From positions 128,001 through 192,000 of IMG/VR virus record IMGVR_UViG_3300032236_001024: DNA of 64,000 nt, one strand, 5' to 3'. Of this stretch, positions 13,643 through 53,108 are shown in pieces. Each line of letters starts with the position of its first letter. Position 1 is the first letter of the stretch. The notes beneath the pieces were generated by a model. The model saw nothing but the letters and a program-made list of their open reading frames with translations, ran no database searches and was not told the origin of the DNA. This DNA is from a virus. Lineage: Duplodnaviria > Caudoviricetes. The translations under genes and the position numbers were made by a program.

Positions 13643-13674
13643 AATATTTCTCCAAGAAATTATATACCCCTTAT

Positions 13675-14466
13675 TTAGGCATAAAATTTCTTGGTGGCTC
13701 TAGCTTCAAATAACCTAGTACTAGTTACTGATGAAATATCTTTGATATTAAATGCATTTGTTTCTTTTTCAGAGCACACCCACATTTCATCTTTATATCT
13801 AATAGATGCATGTCTGAACCATTCATGCCAATGATCTTTTTGTAAATCAAACCACCATTGATCTGTAATAGGATCAGGCAATTTTTTCACATGAGATGAT
13901 TTAGTCCACCAAAAATTTCCACTATAATGAGGCTCAGGCTCAGTCATATAATTTGTTCCTGCAACGTCAAAATTACTGTCTAGTGAATTTATACATTGCT
14001 TCCATTCATCAATGACTCCCCATACAAGATATTCTTTCCAATAATAATAATTTATAAAACAATCAAAATTATAAGTTTTCAAATATCTTTCAAATGATGT
14101 AATTCCTTTTGAATGATTGTAAAGAAAATATGCATCTTCTTTACATGCATGATCATATAAAAGTTTTATTGTAGTATTTTCATTAACTTGTGGAGGAAAT
14201 GAATGAGCATCATTCAGTGACAATAAATTATTATCATTCCCCATAGGATTATCATATGCTGTGAACTCATACTTATTCGAAAGAGTTTTAGCTAATCCAT
14301 ATGCTAATCTGATATTATCTATGTTGCCGATTACTATTAGATGAATTTTTTCTAACTCATCTAATAGTCCAGAGTCTTCCATTTTTTTATAATTATCTAA
14401 AAGAAATGAAGACCATGCAGCAACATCATCTGTCAGATATAGATGATAGTACGCATATTTTTTCAC
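13675..14466 (-). CDS. hypothetical protein, glycosyltransferase-cluster associated
   Basis: YNHSKG and HYSGNFWW motifs; in sugar operon. Confidence 0.6.
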   Translation of the reverse strand: MKKYAYYHLYLTDDVAAWSSFLLDNYKKMEDSGLLDELEKIHLIVIGNIDNIRLAYGLAKTLSNKYEFTAYDNPMGNDNNLLSLNDAHSFPPQVNENTTIKLLYDHACKEDAYFLYNHSKGITSFERYLKTYNFDCFINYYYWKEYLVWGVIDEWKQCINSLDSNFDVAGTNYMTEPEPHYSGNFWWTKSSHVKKLPDPITDQWWFDLQKDHWHEWFRHASIRYKDEMWVCSEKETNAFNIKDISSVTSTRLFEARATKKFYA

Positions 14467-38540: not shown

Positions 38541-38571
38541 GGTAGTCAGGCTCCTTAATATTATTGAATAT

Positions 38572-39093
38572 TTAGGTCTTTGTTAATTTGACCTGAAGAC
38601 ATTCAGTTATAGGAACCTGACGTACATACTCACCTTCCGCCTTACGGTTTGACCAAGGCTTCAAAGGATATTCAAGAATTTTACGACTATCAATCACAAC
38701 AGCCCTTGTGCATTCTTTGTTTAGTTGAACGTATGACACGCCATACTTTTCATGAAGCTTGAAAGGAATTTTCTTGGTGAAGCTTTTCTCACGCCTCCAC
38801 TGATGATCTTTGCGTTCGATGCAGTTGATCTCACGGAAAGGAAACTTGATATCACCTTGCCAGTTACCATGACGAACCTCAATCTCCCAGCAATGAACAA
38901 CTTCATCCTTATCATTCAACGTCAGAAGATCGATACCATGAGCATTGGGATTATCGATGGTACGAAACTTGTCAAACTTTTTATTGAGGAATTCCTTCAT
39001 GGCGTCACGCCCAAGCTGGTCATACTGAATGTGGTCAGCACGATCAAACTTCTTGATTACCCCAACCATCCCACGCCGTTCTGCTTCGCTCAT
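38572..39093 (-). CDS. hypothetical protein, PD-(D/E)xK nuclease-like
   Basis: GIDLL...WEIEVRH; higher GC than flanks. Confidence 0.5.
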   Translation of the reverse strand: MSEAERRGMVGVIKKFDRADHIQYDQLGRDAMKEFLNKKFDKFRTIDNPNAHGIDLLTLNDKDEVVHCWEIEVRHGNWQGDIKFPFREINCIERKDHQWRREKSFTKKIPFKLHEKYGVSYVQLNKECTRAVVIDSRKILEYPLKPWSNRKAEGEYVRQVPITECLQVKLTKT

Positions 39094-46550: not shown

Positions 46551-46802
46551 TTAACTTTCGAGGATTGAATTGAGTTTTGCAATAAATTCGTTGATTCTTT
46601 CTTCACGATTAGGCCAATTGATTGTTGGCTTATCTGGATTCTTCTTTAGGTTATTTAACAGTGGCATAATCATGCTGTGCATTTCACTACACTTGCTCTT
46701 CCACTTCATAACATCTGCTGACTTTGCAGTCAAGTCACCTTGCATCTTTTTTGATGACTCTTCATGATTATCTGAAAATGTAAATCCAAAATCATCTGTC
46801 AT
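46551..46802 (-). CDS. hypothetical protein
   Basis: DDFGFTF, PLLNNLKKNPDK.TINWPNR. Confidence 0.75.
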   Translation of the reverse strand: MTDDFGFTFSDNHEESSKKMQGDLTAKSADVMKWKSKCSEMHSMIMPLLNNLKKNPDKPTINWPNREERINEFIAKLNSILES

Positions 46803-46807
46803 TTATT

Positions 46808-48148
46808 TTACTCCCAAAATTCGTCTAGTGTGTTTCTCTTTTCGACTTGCCAACCAATCACATCAAGAATGGTTTTGATCGGTTCGACAAATGCCTTACT
46901 GTATTGTAGTTCATAATCAATGTACTTGTCAAGATTCAATTGACGAGGAATATTATGATGACATGCTATCACGTTTTCTTTGATAGGATTTGGCATCTTC
47001 ATATAACAGAACTTGATCTTATCTCCATCTTGGATAAGAGGATAACGCTTATCCAATCCTTCTTTCTTCAAAAGATTATTATACACAAGTGATGCACGGA
47101 CATGCATTGGCGTACCTGACTTGTATATATCATACTTATCAGACCACTTAGAAAGATTCTTGCAACCACGGGGGAATGCAACTTCTTCAAACGAAAGCTT
47201 CTTGAACTCTTGACGGAAATCAGCGATGAACTTTATCATATCATCTTCCTTTTTTGTCATGAGAACTTCCATAGCTTTCTTGATATTATCTCGACAAGCT
47301 TGTGGAGTAGATGAACGAACAGCTTCGATGCCCATCATCTTCAACTTAGGTTCATGATATTGAACACCTTCGTTGTTCCATACATGTAAGATGTAACGCT
47401 TTTTCGCAGTCCAAATACCTTTGCTTGCAATAGACTCACGCTTCATCTGCATCTTCTGTGCATATGCATTCATGTATTCTGCTAGTTCATTGTAGCACTT
47501 ATCAATGAATGCTTGAACCTTAGTCTCACAGAATGCATCGATAGCACCAACAATGAATGGAGCATCATCAGTGTTGAGAAGTTTTACCATTTCTGCCATC
47601 TTCACATAAATTGAATCAGTATCAGATGCAATCACATAATCAACATCCTTTGTCTTGCATACCTTGTTCATAAATTCATTCATCTTCTTTTCAATCCACT
47701 TGATTGAAAGCTGACCAGATAGAGTAATAGAAGTAGCAAGATTATCATCATACCAACGGAAGTACTCATTAGACAACGCACCATATGCAGAGTTAAGCTG
47801 AATCTTCTTAGCCAACTGCATATTATGATTGCGAGCAATCATCTTCACGTTCTCTTCTGATGGTGAAGCTTCTTGTGCTTTCTTAGCTTCGATCATGCGC
47901 TGCTTGAACACCACACGATCATTGTACATGTTCTCCATCAGAGTAGGAAGGAAGCCCTGCTTTCTTATATCATACAATTCTTTATTTGGCGTAATCGTTA
48001 GATTATAATTCTGCAATATGCTGGTATCAATTTTTTTACATAATGCATTTTCAACACTCATATATTTTTTAATATAAAGTATCGAATTCAAATCCTCTAT
48101 TTCGCAAATTATTTCTTCATCAGACATAGTGTCTATTGATCTGAACAT
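46808..48148 (-). CDS. 43: family B DNA polymerase, C-terminal subunit
   Basis: QGFLP, KIQLNSAYG, ASDTDS, KKRY.L, GIEAVRSSTP. Confidence 0.95.
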   Translation of the reverse strand: MFRSIDTMSDEEIICEIEDLNSILYIKKYMSVENALCKKIDTSILQNYNLTITPNKELYDIRKQGFLPTLMENMYNDRVVFKQRMIEAKKAQEASPSEENVKMIARNHNMQLAKKIQLNSAYGALSNEYFRWYDDNLATSITLSGQLSIKWIEKKMNEFMNKVCKTKDVDYVIASDTDSIYVKMAEMVKLLNTDDAPFIVGAIDAFCETKVQAFIDKCYNELAEYMNAYAQKMQMKRESIASKGIWTAKKRYILHVWNNEGVQYHEPKLKMMGIEAVRSSTPQACRDNIKKAMEVLMTKKEDDMIKFIADFRQEFKKLSFEEVAFPRGCKNLSKWSDKYDIYKSGTPMHVRASLVYNNLLKKEGLDKRYPLIQDGDKIKFCYMKMPNPIKENVIACHHNIPRQLNLDKYIDYELQYSKAFVEPIKTILDVIGWQVEKRNTLDEFWE

Positions 48149-48681
48149 TTGTTACTCTTCTTTCTATTTTCTGAAATAGTTAAATATTGAAGATTGTCTG
48201 GATGATGTTTTCCACCTTTTGAAATGGGTATTATATGATCAACTTCATAACCTTTTGGACATTCAATGTACATCTTCATTGTACGTTCTTTTTCTTCTTT
48301 AGTCAAATCAACTAAAGCGTCCCGCATGTATGCTCTTCTATTAGCAGCAACATTATTTAACATTTTTCTCTTATGATTTGCACCAAGATATCTATAATCA
48401 GAAGAACATTTATGGGAACAAAATTTTATCTCCCATCTTCCCTCATAACGAGAAGGAACAACTTTAAAAATATTTTTGCAATGTTGGCATATCTTTTCTA
48501 ACTTACGTTCTTTATTTTCATTTTCAAGATTTTTAGGTTTTTTTATATCAAATTCTTGACATTTTTTCTTTATTAGAACTGAAGAACATCCATAAAATGA
48601 TGCTATCCAGTCTCTTGTTTTATTTTGAATTATAAAAAGTTTATATAAATCTTCTTTTTTTATTAAAAATTTATGCTTCAT
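48133..48681 (-). mobile_element. HNH endonuclease inserted between the two polymerase halves
   Basis: CQHC..FCSHKC; YEVDHIIPISKGGKHHPDNLQYLTISENRKK; AT-rich; CTAAATA at 48713-48719. Confidence 0.9.
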
Positions 48682-48701
48682 TTTATCCTCACTATGTTAA
48701 A

Positions 48702-50000
48702 CTACTTATGTCTATTTAGTGAATTTTGAAGTTGATAAATTCTTTTATGTATATGAGTTTCTGATACCATATTTTCTGGTGAAATTGCATACTGCATGAT
48801 CAGATGTGGATATAGTGAATTCAAATCGAATGACACCACCCAATCATGCATACCAAGCAAGGGGTCTTTCACATATGCACCAACGATCTGTTCGTCCTTG
48901 TGGGTACGTTTGTTCTGAGGAATGACGATGCGTTGATTGATAAGGTAGTTGTGAATGATAACATCCCACAAGCGCACAGAAGTAAACGCATCTGCAAAGT
49001 TCACCTTCGCATCATACGCAATAGCATAAACCTGTTCAATAAATTTCAGCTTGTCATCAAGACGATCAACAAGATCAACGTCCTTGATATTGTACTCAAT
49101 GAAAAGCTGATAGTTCTTCTTATACAAATCAAACAGCGATTCATACTCAGAGTAATCAAGCTTGCGTTCACCAAGTTCAATGTGGGCGATGTGATCTAGA
49201 CGATATGATTCTTGATTGGTGAATGAGAACTTCCTATAAAGTTGCAGATAATCAAGAATTGTAATTCCAATAGGAAGATACGACTTCTGAACAGAACCAA
49301 ACTTTTCTACTGTACGTTCTTCAATGATGCCCCAAGGAGAAATCTTCTTAGCCATTTCATTGCCAAGCAAACTACGCACACGATTGATGATGTAAGGAAT
49401 ATCGAAGTACTCGACGTTCCAACCAGTCACAACATCAGGCTGAAACCATTTGGAACGCCAGATATCAAGAAACTTGATGAGCAAAGATTCTTCATCCTTA
49501 CACCTAAAGTACTTCACATTCTCATTATCAGTTTTGAATTCACCACAACCAAGAACGATATAGAACCCATCCTTCTTCATTGTGATAGCAGTGATCTCTT
49601 TATCAGCTGTCTCGATATTAGGAAACCCTTGATCAGCTGCAACCTCGATATCGATGTTTACGATAGAGATTTGCTTTGGGTCATAATCGATTTCGCCGGG
49701 ATAATAATCGTTGATGAATGGGTAGACGAATTGTGTCATGCCATAAATCTCAAAGTTGGAAACATCCTCATACTTCTTTGCGAAGTCACGAGCATCTTTT
49801 GGCGAGTCAAAGTCCATACGCTTTACAGCATCACCTTTGAGTGTCCTGAATTCAATCTCATCCACATTGTTTGGATTGTTATTGTGGACAAACAGATACG
49901 GCTTGCAAGGTATCTTTTCAAACACACGATTCCCACCATCGTAACCACGAAGCAGGATGTTGTCGAAGTGAAGATGTGCATGGGTGTAAAATTTGCTCAT
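48702..50000 (-). CDS. 43: family B DNA polymerase, N-terminal subunit (exonuclease plus motif A)
   Basis: DIEV, TGWNVEYFDIPY, SYRLDHIA, YNIKDV, SFDLNSLYP. Confidence 0.95.
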   Translation of the reverse strand: MSKFYTHAHLHFDNILLRGYDGGNRVFEKIPCKPYLFVHNNNPNNVDEIEFRTLKGDAVKRMDFDSPKDARDFAKKYEDVSNFEIYGMTQFVYPFINDYYPGEIDYDPKQISIVNIDIEVAADQGFPNIETADKEITAITMKKDGFYIVLGCGEFKTDNENVKYFRCKDEESLLIKFLDIWRSKWFQPDVVTGWNVEYFDIPYIINRVRSLLGNEMAKKISPWGIIEERTVEKFGSVQKSYLPIGITILDYLQLYRKFSFTNQESYRLDHIAHIELGERKLDYSEYESLFDLYKKNYQLFIEYNIKDVDLVDRLDDKLKFIEQVYAIAYDAKVNFADAFTSVRLWDVIIHNYLINQRIVIPQNKRTHKDEQIVGAYVKDPLLGMHDWVVSFDLNSLYPHLIMQYAISPENMVSETHIHKRIYQLQNSLNRHK

Positions 50001-50039
50001 ACGAATACCTTATACCAAAGTGAGCCAAGATGCAAGCTA

Positions 50040-50068
50040 AAAATTAGGGGGCAATGAAGCCCCCTAAC
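50040..50068 (-). terminator. intrinsic terminator
   Basis: TAGGGGGC-TTCATT-GCCCCCTA followed by ATTTTT. Confidence 0.75.
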
Positions 50069-50072
50069 AAGA

Positions 50073-50237
50073 TTATTTTCTACAATTTTCCATTGCTAAG
50101 TTCAAGATATCTCCACGAGTAATGCCAATATCAGCAAGTTCTCTATCAGTCAAATTAGATAGCTCATTGATGATACTGTAATATCTTGTACTGACCGAAA
50201 TTTCTTTCAGCCAATAATCTATCCATGTTTTTATCAT
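50073..50237 (-). CDS. DUF1127 family small protein (54 aa; not in ORF track)
   Basis: hand translation ...INELSNLTDRELADIGITRGDILNLA, matching the L..L.DR.L.DIG..R.DI pattern. Confidence 0.85.
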   Translation of the reverse strand: MIKTWIDYWLKEISVSTRYYSIINELSNLTDRELADIGITRGDILNLAMENCRK

Positions 50238-50790: not shown

Positions 50791-50877
50791 TTCATAAATA
50801 TGCCGTCCAATTATGCTACGGCATAAATATATTTAGGTTGGATTGAAGCAAAAATCAAGAGTAGAGGATAAAAAAAT

Positions 50878-51330
50878 ATGGCTGATGAACCAAATAAACC
50901 ACATACTGAAGATTTTGCTACTGCGAAGTGGAGACCCTTTATGGGTTGGACATATATGGCTATATGTTTCTTTGATTTTGTTATTGGTCCTGTTATGAAT
51001 GTGGCATTTTCTATTATAACAAAAACACCACTGATACCTTGGAAGTCACTCACACTAGACAATGGTGGATTGTTCCATCTTGCTATGGGTGCAGTTCTAG
51101 GTGTTGCTGCTTATGGAAGAACACAAGAGAAGGTCGCTAAGATTGATAATGGTATTCCGTTGCCGGGATCGCCTACACCATCTGCACCGTCTCCTGCACC
51201 AGCACCAATGCCTGATCCTACACCAGTCCCTGCGCCTGTAGTATCAGCACCAGCACCAACTGCAATAGTAAATGCTGATCCTGCACCAGCACCAACACCA
51301 GTTGTGTCAACACGCAAAAGATTTAGTTAA
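50878..51330 (+). CDS. holin-like membrane protein (3TM family) with Pro/Ala-rich tail
   Basis: KWRPFMGWTY..ICFFDF, GAVLGVAAYGRTQEK. Confidence 0.65.
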   Translation: MADEPNKPHTEDFATAKWRPFMGWTYMAICFFDFVIGPVMNVAFSIITKTPLIPWKSLTLDNGGLFHLAMGAVLGVAAYGRTQEKVAKIDNGIPLPGSPTPSAPSPAPAPMPDPTPVPAPVVSAPAPTAIVNADPAPAPTPVVSTRKRFS

Positions 51331-51338
51331 AAAATATT

Positions 51339-51362
51339 GGGGCGGTTATGCCGCCCCTTTTA
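51339..51362 (+). terminator. intrinsic terminator
   Basis: GGGGCGG-TTATG-CCGCCCC-TTTT. Confidence 0.75.
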
Positions 51363-51546
51363 TCTTGAAGTGCGTAAACACGTTGTCCTTATCAAAGGAT
51401 TGAACATCACGTATCCAAGCTAGAGCATCTTTTTCTGTTGCAAAATGCAATCTATCTTTAATGGTTAGACCGTTTAGAGCGCCTCTATTGAGGAGTTTTT
51501 CGAATTCAACAACATATCTACAAGTCTTTTCTTTTAGGTCAGTCAT
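51346..51546 (-). CDS. hypothetical protein (start MTDLKEK)
   Basis: GGAG RBS; track ORF extends into tRNA. Confidence 0.65.
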   Translation of the reverse strand: MTDLKEKTCRYVVEFEKLLNRGALNGLTIKDRLHFATEKDALAWIRDVQSFDKDNVFTHFKIKGAA

Positions 51547-51588
51547 TTTCAGTCTCCATTTTTGCACCAGTCTATTTATCAAAAAAGA

Positions 51589-51664
51589 TGGTAGGCGTGG
51601 AGGGAATCGAACCCCCAACCAGACTATTATGAGTAGTCGGCTCTGACCGTTGAGCTACACGCCT
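51589..51664 (-). tRNA. tRNA with CAT anticodon (elongator Met or lysidine Ile2)
   Basis: GACTA-CTCATAA-TAGTC; fully paired position 1:72 so not initiator; CCA. Confidence 0.88.
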
Positions 51665-51672
51665 ATTGGTAT

Positions 51673-51834
51673 TTAGAAGGGAACAATAAAGTCCTCTCCA
51701 ACTGAAATTAATCTTTCCAGATTCTTGATCTCAGTTTTCAATTTCTCTACGTTTTCGCCGTTCCATTCTGCTTCACTCAATTGCTTTCGTTTAGCTTTGA
51801 GTACATCATATGTACGGGGGAAAGGATCGTTCAT
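51673..51834 (-). CDS. small hypothetical protein (53 aa; not in ORF track)
   Basis: MNDPFPRTYDVLKAKRKQL...GEDFIVPF, TAATG-coupled to gapR. Confidence 0.6.
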   Translation of the reverse strand: MNDPFPRTYDVLKAKRKQLSEAEWNGENVEKLKTEIKNLERLISVGEDFIVPF

Positions 51835-52079
51835 TACATCATACCAATCTTTTGCATGTAAAGTTCAAGAAGTGTCTCTTCCTCTTGACGCTCTTCCCTT
51901 GACTTACGACGAAGAGAAACGATCTTGCGGACAATCTTGGTATCATATCCTGCAGACTTCACTTCAACATAAATCTCCTTGATATCCTCAGAGATTGCTC
52001 GCTTGTCTTCATCCAGTCGCTCAATACGATCAATGTATCCCAGCAACTGATCCTTATTCACATTATCACTCATTGTCAA
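51834..52079 (-). CDS. gapR: GapR/DUF2312 nucleoid-associated protein
   Basis: QL..YIDRIERL.E.K..I..DIKEIY.E.KS.GYD.K..R.IV.LR. Confidence 0.9.
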   Translation of the reverse strand: MTMSDNVNKDQLLGYIDRIERLDEDKRAISEDIKEIYVEVKSAGYDTKIVRKIVSLRRKSREERQEEETLLELYMQKIGMM

Positions 52080-52100
52080 TATCCTTTTAGAGAAAGTGGA

Positions 52101-52120
52101 GGGGGAGATTTCTCTCCCCC
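52101..52120 (-). terminator. GC hairpin after DUF932 gene
   Basis: GGGGGAGA/TCTCCCCC. Confidence 0.55.
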
Positions 52121-52127
52121 GTTTTTA

Positions 52128-53069
52128 TTAGGCAGCGTCAGCGAATTCCACTGCCTTTTCCAGAGCCAGAACCTTGCGGTTGCGGTTGGGACCATACCAT
52201 GCAGACTGCAAACGAGTCTCAGGGTTATGACCAAGAACGTGATCGGTGGTGAAGGTCACAGCATTGAAAGCCTGCCACCACGAACCCTTACCAAACTCTG
52301 CTCCCGGCTGAGTGTCGAGAACTTCCATAACCTGAGTCGCAGGACGAGAAAGAACCTTCTTGTTCTCCTTTGACATAGCAGGAAAGATAGCCTGCAGATA
52401 TTCAGTGAGGTTTTCCTCATTGTACTGGCGAGACGAAAGAAACTCAGCAGTTTCCTTGTAGGTGTCCATCTTGGTGTGAGCGATACCCAAAGTGCGACGA
52501 ACCATATCAGCATCAAAAGCACGGCGATGGTTCAACTTCACCATAAGGTCACTAGAAGTACCAAGAGCCAAGGTGAGCGTGTTGTTGCAGACCACACGAA
52601 TGGGAGTAAACCGAATGTCAATCGACTTACCATATTCATGAGGATTGCTGAACAGAAGATACGAATCCACACGATCACCACCAAGGATTTCGAAGCTATC
52701 CTTGACCTTGGCGAGAGCCCAAACATTCTTACCCTCACGAAGCGAACCAGCAGTGTGCATTTCCATGTCACCAGCCATCACGAAGTCATGAAAGAATTCG
52801 AAAGCTTCGTGATTCTGGACAGGCTTCCAGTCAGCGGAAACCATCGTCAGAATCTTGTCGTCAGACGAACGAACCAGGGCCTGAGTGTCAGTGACAATCT
52901 TTTTACCCTTGCGAGTGATGAAGGTCGGAACCTTCTCAACCGTCCAATCCAAACCAGCCTCTACGAGCATCTGGTCAGGAGTGAGATCATGATGAACGCT
53001 CTTGCCAAGACCATGCCAAGGGGTTTCACCAGCGTAAGCCATCGTTTCCATATTGTGCGCCATAACCAA
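52128..53069 (-). CDS. DUF932 domain protein
   Basis: MAYAGETPWHGLG, PVQNHEAF, TAGSL, TPIRVVCNNTL. Confidence 0.9.
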   Translation of the reverse strand: MVMAHNMETMAYAGETPWHGLGKSVHHDLTPDQMLVEAGLDWTVEKVPTFITRKGKKIVTDTQALVRSSDDKILTMVSADWKPVQNHEAFEFFHDFVMAGDMEMHTAGSLREGKNVWALAKVKDSFEILGGDRVDSYLLFSNPHEYGKSIDIRFTPIRVVCNNTLTLALGTSSDLMVKLNHRRAFDADMVRRTLGIAHTKMDTYKETAEFLSSRQYNEENLTEYLQAIFPAMSKENKKVLSRPATQVMEVLDTQPGAEFGKGSWWQAFNAVTFTTDHVLGHNPETRLQSAWYGPNRNRKVLALEKAVEFADAA

Positions 53070-53108
53070 GTTCCTTTCAGTTCATGAGTCCCTTGACTCA
53101 ATATAAAG

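Follow-up and report, generated by a model that had tools for sequence, protein, structure and literature searches.

How does a phage keep a DNA polymerase when the gene encoding it has been cut in two by a nuclease gene? The question is raised by a locus in a 64,000-nucleotide (nt) stretch of the virus record IMGVR_UViG_3300032236_001024, here called the window, to which all coordinates refer unless a contig is named. The DNA polymerase gene of a T4-like phage, gp43, is distributed there over two open reading frames (ORFs), polN and polC, with an HNH endonuclease gene between them, all three on the minus strand. Very probably, the gene was put into pieces by a free-standing HNH homing-endonuclease cassette. 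We infer that the enzyme is made as two polypeptides of 432 and 446 amino acids assembling non-covalently, and that its active site is composite, the motif A aspartate being contributed by the first piece and motifs B and C by the second.

The N fragment, polN (48702..50000), encodes 432 residues followed by a TAG stop and comprises the N-terminal domain, the 3'-5' exonuclease domain and the start of the palm with motif A (DLNSLYP, residues 392-398, 48807-48827). Its Pfam matches are to DNA_pol_B_exo1 (PF03104, 7e-21) and to the first 70 positions of DNA_pol_B (PF00136, 3e-8); the frame runs on for 34 residues past motif A and ends in ...AISPENMVSETHIHKRIYQLQNSLNRHK. The C fragment, polC (46808..48148), encodes 446 residues plus a stop, begins with MFRSIDTMSDEE... 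and covers the remaining palm, the fingers and the thumb (rest of DNA_pol_B, PF00136, 3e-16), with motif B (K115...G123) at 47780-47806 and motif C (DTDS, D176-S179) at 47612-47623. The motifs Exo I-III and A, B and C are all intact and conserved. Between the two fragments lies the HNH gene (48133..48681, 182 residues). Exactly 20 nt (48682-48701) separate the polN stop from the HNH ATG and are the only non-coding letters of the locus; a GAGGA Shine-Dalgarno sequence precedes the HNH start, and the 3' end of the HNH gene overlaps the polC ATG by 16 nt. The three ORFs lie in three different frames. Over 200-nt windows the G+C content is 0.21-0.33 across about 48000-48800, against 0.35-0.44 on either flank. 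A sequence-only reading of this DNA had reported that gp43 ends soon after motif A, that an AT-rich HNH ORF follows across only about 20 non-coding nt and that a second ORF resumes the polymerase; the ORF calls, the Pfam matches and the count of 20 nt bear this out.

The HNH ORF matches Pfam HNH (PF01844) with 28.3 bits against a cut-off of 21.4 (2e-6), which passes the superfamily threshold, and its PHROG matches are to HNH and endonuclease VII families. The protein consists of an N-terminal helix-turn-helix-like module, a four-cysteine module and a C-terminal HNH domain; C65, C68, C88, C92, D148, H149, N163 and N172 are invariant in an alignment with the homologues of contigs L024 and L043. 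A profile of the protein found weak generic HNH and helix-turn-helix matches only among PDB sequences. The gene is present in a single copy in the 202-kb genome.

On the polymerase side, polN aligns to RB69 gp43 (phmmer, 1e-66) through RB69 residue 432, a short way beyond motif A and the ISPET block, and polC aligns to T4 and RB69 gp43 (phmmer, about 1e-58) to the C terminus, its TITPN segment corresponding to T4 residue 452. Because of these two anchors, the break can be placed in the palm domain, where a short variable stretch links the motif A helix to the small beta-hairpin ahead of the fingers. This stretch measures about 17-45 residues in unsplit relatives and almost nothing in RB69, a variation in length that marks it as a tolerant surface position.

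Comparison with unsplit relatives, which the sequence-only reading had proposed, shows what was inserted. The viral contig L002 carries one polymerase ORF of 833 residues and no HNH gene; it is 96% identical to the window over the N part, where polN matches its residues 1-426, and 97% over the C part. At the DNA level (blastn) identity is 98.7% for 50000-48790 and 97.9% for 47956-46808, and between these breakpoints the window has 833 nt where L002 has 142 nt. Both breakpoints are sharp. The left one (48790) falls inside codon Y404, beyond which the ISPE codons differ even at synonymous positions, and the right one (47956) lies at the GFLP codons, at polC residue 65. In contigs from two sister samples of the probable source study (X2 and X3), position 47953 is joined to 48790 through 145 other letters, which is the unsplit allele, and in L003 and L004, 85-89% identical, the polymerase also occupies one ORF.

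The foreign AT-rich block (47954..48789, about 833 nt, minus strand) exceeds the HNH gene, adding the last 28 codons of polN and the first 64 of polC. The imported polN end (residues 405-432, 48705..48788) consists of a recoded AISPEN block and an N tail (residues 411-432); the imported polC end (residues 1-64, 47957..48148) consists of an eight-residue leader, a head helix (residues 10-29) and a donor segment with SVxxxL and TITPN. As judged from the identities, the insertion is recent in the lineage of the window. The tails came with the element, as had been proposed, being absent from the 96-97% identical unsplit L002. Presumably, the endonuclease set off the recombination (homing) that brought in the block, and neighbouring polymerase codons were co-converted. 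The roughly 142 nt between the ...MQY and GFLP... codons have been replaced by the 833-nt foreign block holding, in order, the recoded ISPE codons with the tail and stop, the 20-nt spacer, the HNH gene, the 29-residue head and the donor's next 35 polymerase residues.

Other loci point to the same process. Relatives of the HNH protein were sought among viral contigs with an alignment of the protein and two homologues, and then by a metagenome scan. Forty viral contigs (L125-L164) hold full-length relatives at 42-51% identity, all between polN and polC at the same break; L024 and L043 have the same polN-HNH-polC arrangement, and closer relatives occupy the site in L204 (73%), L205 (67%) and L206 (62%). 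All 45 loci with full-length relatives (42-73%) thus share one polymerase site, in host polymerases 41-51% identical to that of the window; in L204 and L205 the HNH proteins are 73% and 67% identical to that of the window but polN only 49-50%. Because its relatives share one site in polymerases so divergent, the cassette appears to move horizontally, an incongruence judged by identities only, and homing that co-converts the sequence on either side would leave such a pattern. A homologue search with polC residues 1-110 recovered mainly fragments of unsplit polymerases, and the head family required a profile search. Among 1.8 billion representatives, a profile of the C head found at least 23 clusters (50% identity) with the head at or near the called N terminus (offsets 0-35 residues), for which reason the split form appears to be widespread.

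The occupant of the site varies. In three contigs (L028:2174-2704, L049:2956-3495 and L058:1528-2061) a GIY-YIG-like endonuclease gene replaces the HNH gene between the same tails, recognized by YVYVY...FYIGVG motifs, a match to PHROG 314 homing endonuclease (1.5e-7) and a weak Pfam match. The helix-turn-helix module at the C terminus of this endonuclease shares 49-54% identity with the module at the N terminus of the HNH protein, and the similarity suggests that two nuclease domains use one shared DNA-binding module for one target. These three loci had been candidates for decayed HNH genes, which was rejected since their translation is the GIY-YIG-like endonuclease with the same helix-turn-helix module. 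Some split alleles carry extra genes in the intercistronic gap: L134:1401-1853 and L142 (between the HNH gene and polC), L128:3563-3724, L159:2645-2839 and L058 at about 2055-2265. They include a Dam-type N6-adenine methyltransferase (PF05869, 2e-30), a small four-cysteine ORF and a conserved ORF of 65 residues of unassigned function. One split allele (L150:1059-2036) has a further insertion of about 1 kb in its N fragment near residues 125-136, just past the Exo I region.

The peptides left at the break by the cassette are the part of the locus that bears most directly on how the two halves could work together. In the window, the N tail has a net charge of +3 and residues 1-30 of the C head a net charge of -4. 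Split alleles fall into three tail groups. In the group of the window, which includes L204 and L205, the N tail follows the pattern ...I-x-K-R-I...SLN-x-HK and the head starts with MF(R/K)SID...SDEE. Subfamily A has N tails ending in ...RNTK and heads starting with MFRNVKELTTEEL, with charges of +1 to +4 on the tail and -2 to -4 on the head. In subfamily B the N tail reads ...NNRIAELEKML and the head starts with MWKDVRKMSxEEI. The C head is conserved in 29 split alleles. Uncorrected pN/pS ratios of the tails are 0.35-0.40 in subfamily A and 0.27-0.40 in subfamily B, against 0.14-0.29 in the adjacent polymerase core; with synonymous sites near saturation, the tail ratios are upper bounds. These values indicate that the tails are translated and under purifying selection. 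An AlphaFold2 model of polC (25-row alignment, mean pLDDT, the predicted local distance difference test, of 86.5) places residues 10-29 in one helix with pLDDT 90-94.

A possible origin of these peptides is found in polymerases that are not split. The profile search also found P0035 and P0122, unsplit polymerases in which a head-like segment is internal. In P0035, the single chain continues after ISPETLV with a segment resembling the N tail, a five-residue turn (NSDEN) and a head-like segment; P0122 is similar. The end of polN is similar to the N tails found in L204 and L205 and to the helix that opens the fused hairpin of P0035, and the window tails align collinearly to P0035 with scores reached by 52 of 2000 shuffles (N tail) and 27 of 2000 (head). 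The AlphaFold2 model of P0035 (42-row alignment, mean pLDDT 91.8), which superposes on RB69 gp43 with a TM score of 0.85 (Foldseek), has a helix at 408-421, a loop at 422-426 (pLDDT about 79) and a second helix at 427-445. Since only five residues connect them, the modelled helices would pack as an antiparallel hairpin. By this alignment the endonuclease gene of split alleles sits in the loop of a helix-loop-helix, the extra residues beyond the P0035-like arms being about 3-5 at the end of the N tail and about eight, the leader, at the start of the C head. On this reading the palm would carry, after motif A, an inserted surface helix-loop-helix whose loop contains the break, and each piece would retain one helix. 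The uninvaded twin L002 has no hairpin. The helices thus seem to have arrived with the element in the lineage of the window without being new inventions of the family as a whole; the proposal that the tails are new holds for that lineage and fails for the family, in which they are arms of a helix-loop-helix continuous in P0035 and P0122.

The two helices would plausibly pair again across the break and aid assembly or activity. That the severed helices do re-pair and help in this way is, in our estimation, an evenly balanced proposition, and several observations weigh against it. Fused hairpins such as those of P0035 and P0122 may be the original state, or they may descend from split genes that lost the nuclease gene and healed. 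In subfamily B the charges are about -1 on the N tail and about 0 on the head, without any charge complementarity. The hydrophobic moment of the head helix does not exceed that of shuffled sequences (1434 of 2000 reach it), which leaves its amphipathicity unsupported. A large composite palm interface may suffice to hold the pieces without tails, as the tails of a split ribonucleotide reductase, phage Aeh1 NrdA, were not needed for the binding of its two pieces and served only a later assembly step (PMC3045599). The basic and acidic tails announced by the sequence-only reading are thus found in two of the three tail groups, that of the window and subfamily A, and not in subfamily B, so that charge pairing, across the alleles compared, appears frequent without being defining; of the amphipathic helix described for the C head, the helix is predicted and the amphipathicity drops out. 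A predicted complex between the full N fragment and C head residues 1-34, computed with alignments for both and without controls, has an ipSAE of 0.07, which speaks neither for nor against the pairing.

The strongest rival takes these points further. It accepts the split as real and treats the tails as passive: the composite palm interface alone would hold the fragments together, and the helices would be the severed arms of a hairpin that was decorative in the donor. We consider this a serious contender, somewhat short of an even chance. Since unsplit polymerases carry the same helix-loop-helix, reassembly need not be what the helices evolved for; unsplit relatives differ greatly in the length of the region, which RB69 lacks; and neither universal charge complementarity nor a need for tails in Aeh1 heterodimer formation speaks for an active role. 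On the other hand, passive remnants sit poorly with the purifying selection on the tails, with their retention at loci where another endonuclease has replaced the HNH gene and with an eight-residue leader (M-F/W-R/K-x-V/I...) and head pattern kept across subfamilies that are only about 40% identical.

Far weaker is the idea that one continuous polymerase is restored after all, by a group I intron, an intein or split intein, or ribosomal bypass. T4-like replication genes are known to harbour introns, inteins and, in T4 gene 60, a bypass, and fractured genes with split inteins around an endonuclease gene have been described for cyanophage gp41 and other genes (PMC2677866). A group I intron would show a P3-P9 core and exons joining in frame; here, Rfam has no family matching 46700-50100 on either strand at E<=1, and almost no non-coding sequence is present. 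Intein halves of roughly 100 and 35 residues contrast with tails of about 22 and 29; the extra peptide adds up to about 45 residues, far short of a mini-intein, and the fused P0035 has only about 45 residues at the site. On inspection of all 29-42 split alleles, neither a Cys or Ser start nor a His-Asn end followed by Cys, Ser or Thr was present, and an in-frame intein is impossible because the three ORFs lie in different frames. An intein remnant was likewise rejected, the peptides being too small and devoid of intein blocks. The tails show the substitution pattern of coding sequence as far as the stop and from the ATG onward, and a gap of about 550 nt compares with 50 nt in gene 60. Restoration of a single chain is on these grounds highly improbable, and the description of gp43 as split by a free-standing HNH gene without intron or intein is upheld.

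Least probable of all, hardly worth entertaining, is that the locus reflects an assembly or frameshift error or that the polymerase gene is dead: the window is a metagenome assembly and the run X1, which contains it identically, may be its own source, but a 5665-nt contig from a different study of lake water (X5) spans 46808-49877 including the cassette at about 91% identity, 45 other, independent contigs share the polN-HNH-polC order, and the catalytic motifs are intact and under purifying selection. The locus is therefore not an assembly artefact, the error that had been named as fatal to the split. No other PolB or PolA match was found in the complete 202-kb genome, of which the split gp43 is the only detected DNA polymerase, and the split state persists in lineages diverged to 45-50% identity.

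A cassette inside an essential gene also has to be expressed at a suitable time, and the locus holds candidate signals for this. The motif CTAAATA (48713..48719, minus strand) lies 13 nt before the polN stop. Its distance to the HNH ATG, 32 nt, is that at which TATAAATA precedes other genes of the window. TATAAATA itself occurs 17 times in the window against 6.5 expected, 15 of the 17 on the coding strand and several 29-33 nt before starts. L204 and L205 keep TCACTAAATA at the place of CTAAATA; subfamily A has ACTAAATA there, overlapping the stop, and in subfamily B and L206 the position is taken by a perfect TATAAATA within an inverted repeat. CTAAATA looks like a late-promoter variant beside TATAAATA, and would serve the HNH gene. 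The candidate late promoter that the sequence-only reading had put in the last codons of polN is located exactly, with comparative support from L204, L205 and the other subfamilies; what tells the other way is that CTAAATA departs from the TATAAATA consensus and that its count in the window, 13, is close to the 14.3 expected by chance.

The same segment is predicted to fold. The RNA hairpin at 48665..48744 (read from 48744 to 48665) has a minimum free energy of -16.3 kcal/mol (z = -3.7), and none of 200 shuffled sequences folds as well. Its paired bases include the start of GAGGA and part of the HNH AUG region, its 5' arm overlaps CTAAATA, and analogous hairpins precede the HNH start in L204, L205, L206 and subfamilies A and B. 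The prediction is that the HNH ribosome-binding site is closed on an early read-through mRNA and open on a late transcript starting within the hairpin; the nuclease gene would then probably be silent early and expressed late from a promoter of the CTAAATA/TATAAATA type. The start context of polC differs between groups, with a TAATG stop-start overlap in subfamily A, GGAG in subfamily B and only a purine-rich leader with the 16-nt overlap in the window. Over the whole window (copies lie, for example, at 13672-13678, 38569-38575, 50830-50836 and 51670-51676), CTAAATA is on the coding (minus) strand in 13 of 13 cases, and seven of the 13 stand no more than 80 nt upstream of the following ORF start. 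In four copies its TAA is the stop of the preceding ORF, and two of the four have an ORF start 29-30 nt further on.

How an invaded allele escapes its own nuclease may be written in a single residue. The residue before ISPE is Asn in all 53 distinct loci unsplit at the site and in 64 of 69 unsplit representatives. Among 42 distinct split alleles it is never Asn (Ser in 34, Ala in six, Cys and Thr in one each). In the window it is Ala, the first codon within the imported block. The five unsplit exceptions include the hairpin-bearing P0122, P0044, P0108 and P0138. This distribution is compatible with a nuclease that recognizes the conserved coding DNA of QYNISPET and with protection of invaded alleles, and the change from Asn to Ser or Ala in QYNISPE may shield the allele. 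It could also be a trait hitch-hiking from a common cassette ancestor, or a structural co-adaptation.

Taken together, these features allow a broader and more tentative proposal, one we think possible and somewhat doubtful: a self-contained 'cut-and-clasp' module, made of a nuclease gene in the loop of a helix-loop-helix together with recoded, resistant target codons. Whenever such a module invades a naive polymerase, one without the hairpin as in L002, it would install the break, the docking helices that neutralise it and the immunity together, and the docking site would outlive any one nuclease, HNH and GIY-YIG-like genes with a common DNA-binding module alternating in it. If true, it would answer where the tails originate, a question left by Aeh1 NrdA.

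The phage itself comes from a complete 202-kb genome with terminal repeats. Its neighbourhood reads hsp20 ... gp43, a UvsX-like gene and a gp41-like helicase gene, and its gp43 is 49-53% identical to cyanophage gp43, by which it is a T4-like myovirus; the phage is uncultured and of freshwater origin. The sequencing runs holding DNA of this genome are lake and freshwater metagenomes, and none of the runs found to hold DNA of the locus is an RNA run. Among cultured phages, megablast with the locus gave a 194-nt match to S-SM2 only and tblastn with the HNH protein gave partial matches only (45% or less); no isolate of the collection searched was seen to carry the cassette.

Two further features of the surroundings deserve mention. 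The G+C content is 0.45-0.53 over 51000-53100, from about 0.35-0.40, across genes upstream of hsp20 that include an ORF of 313 residues (52128-53069); a homologue of this ORF also stands at the start of L005, so the block is common to relatives. Within polC, at 47436-47647, many short contigs from all four runs match just two conserved patches, at about 47436-47488 and 47606-47647, and then diverge. Contigs matching only these patches around motif C are probably other T4-like polymerases of the same lakes.

Splicing-free rescue of essential phage genes broken by selfish nucleases has few studied cases, namely Aeh1 NrdA, the gp43 of phages 44RR and 25, and T4 topoisomerase. What the present site offers beyond these, in an enzyme of well-known structure, is a natural series comprising the naive L002, the freshly invaded window, old lineages with three tail subfamilies, nuclease-swapped alleles and unsplit alleles with fused helices. 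This series makes the origin and role of the tails, the nuclease target and the putative immunity change directly testable with synthetic genes. It also provides natural split points for engineering two-piece family B polymerases. Finally, gp43 is a common phylogenetic marker for aquatic T4-like phages, yet it frequently comes as two or three fragments and is chimeric in places.

The same enzyme is split in the Aeromonas salmonicida phages 44RR2.8t and 25, whose gene 43 is divided into 43A and 43B and whose halves are reported to co-purify and to be active (Petrov et al. 2006, 2010; summarised in PMC2988022). As predicted for the window, a T4-family gp43 is made as two polypeptides, and phage 25 has a free-standing endonuclease gene between the cistrons. 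The positions differ. The 44RR gp43A, of 498 residues, runs through the break of the window and ends in the first helix of the fingers, and gp43B aligns to polC from residue 106 only; the 44RR break is at the fingers tip, whereas that of the window lies some 65-85 residues earlier, in the palm after motif A. Phage 25 has a GIY-YIG endonuclease (seg-like), an untranslated spacer and a group I intron, all three absent from the locus in the window. The Aeromonas precedent cited in the sequence-only reading consequently holds for the enzyme and, by alignment, not for the site. A relative of the window, L005:2720-5798 (polN 87% identical), has a second gp43 break at the fingers tip, at the same position as 43A/43B in 44RR, with a NUMOD3-HNH gene (Pfam NUMOD3, 2e-11), a basic tail of its own (...SEMKKRKMLYK) and a head of the type M-T-D-Q-E-L. 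Many metagenomic C parts bearing the head of the first site are only about 106 residues long (P0011, P0014, P0016, P0018, P0024, P0060, P0101 and P0122 are listed with a second break). Some phages appear, from such sequences, to make gp43 in three pieces.

Other T4-like genes show parts of the same scheme. In T4 gene 39/mobA/gene 60, an HNH-type mob gene likewise splits the gene of a replication enzyme, and oppositely charged tail-like extensions have been noted; there the enzyme is a topoisomerase, gene 60 has a translational bypass, and no one-site cassette family is known. Fractured genes (Dassa et al. 2009, PMC2677866) share the order of N part, endonuclease gene and C part in replication genes of environmental T4-like phages, and their element-borne peptide ends were proposed to associate electrostatically (PMC2677866). 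Their ends are split-intein halves that ligate the exteins, in contrast with those of the window, which are far too short and have no intein blocks, so that its protein should stay as two chains. T4 I-TevI and Aeh1 mobE are controlled by a late promoter and a hairpin over the ribosome-binding site (Gibb and Edgell 2007, cited in PMC2677866 and PMC3045599), a scheme in which TATAAATA is expected some 30-45 nt or less from the start. The window resembles them in having a TAAATA-type motif in or beside the 5' arm of a predicted hairpin and a 3' arm over the ribosome-binding site of the endonuclease gene, and differs in having CTAAATA instead of TATAAATA.

The closest counterpart is Aeh1 nrdA-a/mobE/nrdA-b, in which the basic and acidic tails derived from the cassette are essential for the activity of the split NrdA (Friedrich et al. 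2007; Crona et al. 2011, PMC3045599). Both systems have a free-standing HNH gene inside an essential T4-like gene of replication or nucleotide metabolism, two separately translated fragments (predicted here) with a composite active site and neither RNA nor protein splicing, and a first fragment with a basic C-terminal tail facing a second with an acidic N-terminal tail, each of which came with the element. A function of the tails is proven in Aeh1 NrdA and putative in gp43. The host gene is a DNA polymerase here and a ribonucleotide reductase there, and the HNH protein of the window is of unrelated architecture, with its helix-turn-helix, four-cysteine and C-terminal HNH modules. No description of a break after motif A in a T4-like gp43 was found in the literature, of which coverage was incomplete and did not include Petrov et al. 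2010. The kind of event is known, free-standing endonuclease genes having fragmented essential T4-like genes and left element-borne tails (PMC3045599, PMC2988022), and the locus is a new example at a new site. Unlike in Aeh1, its tails can be followed back to the two arms of a helix-loop-helix that some unsplit homologues have in one uninterrupted chain, and its cassette family is found again and again at one site, in dozens of divergent polymerases, whereas the insertion in Aeh1 is the only one known of its sort.

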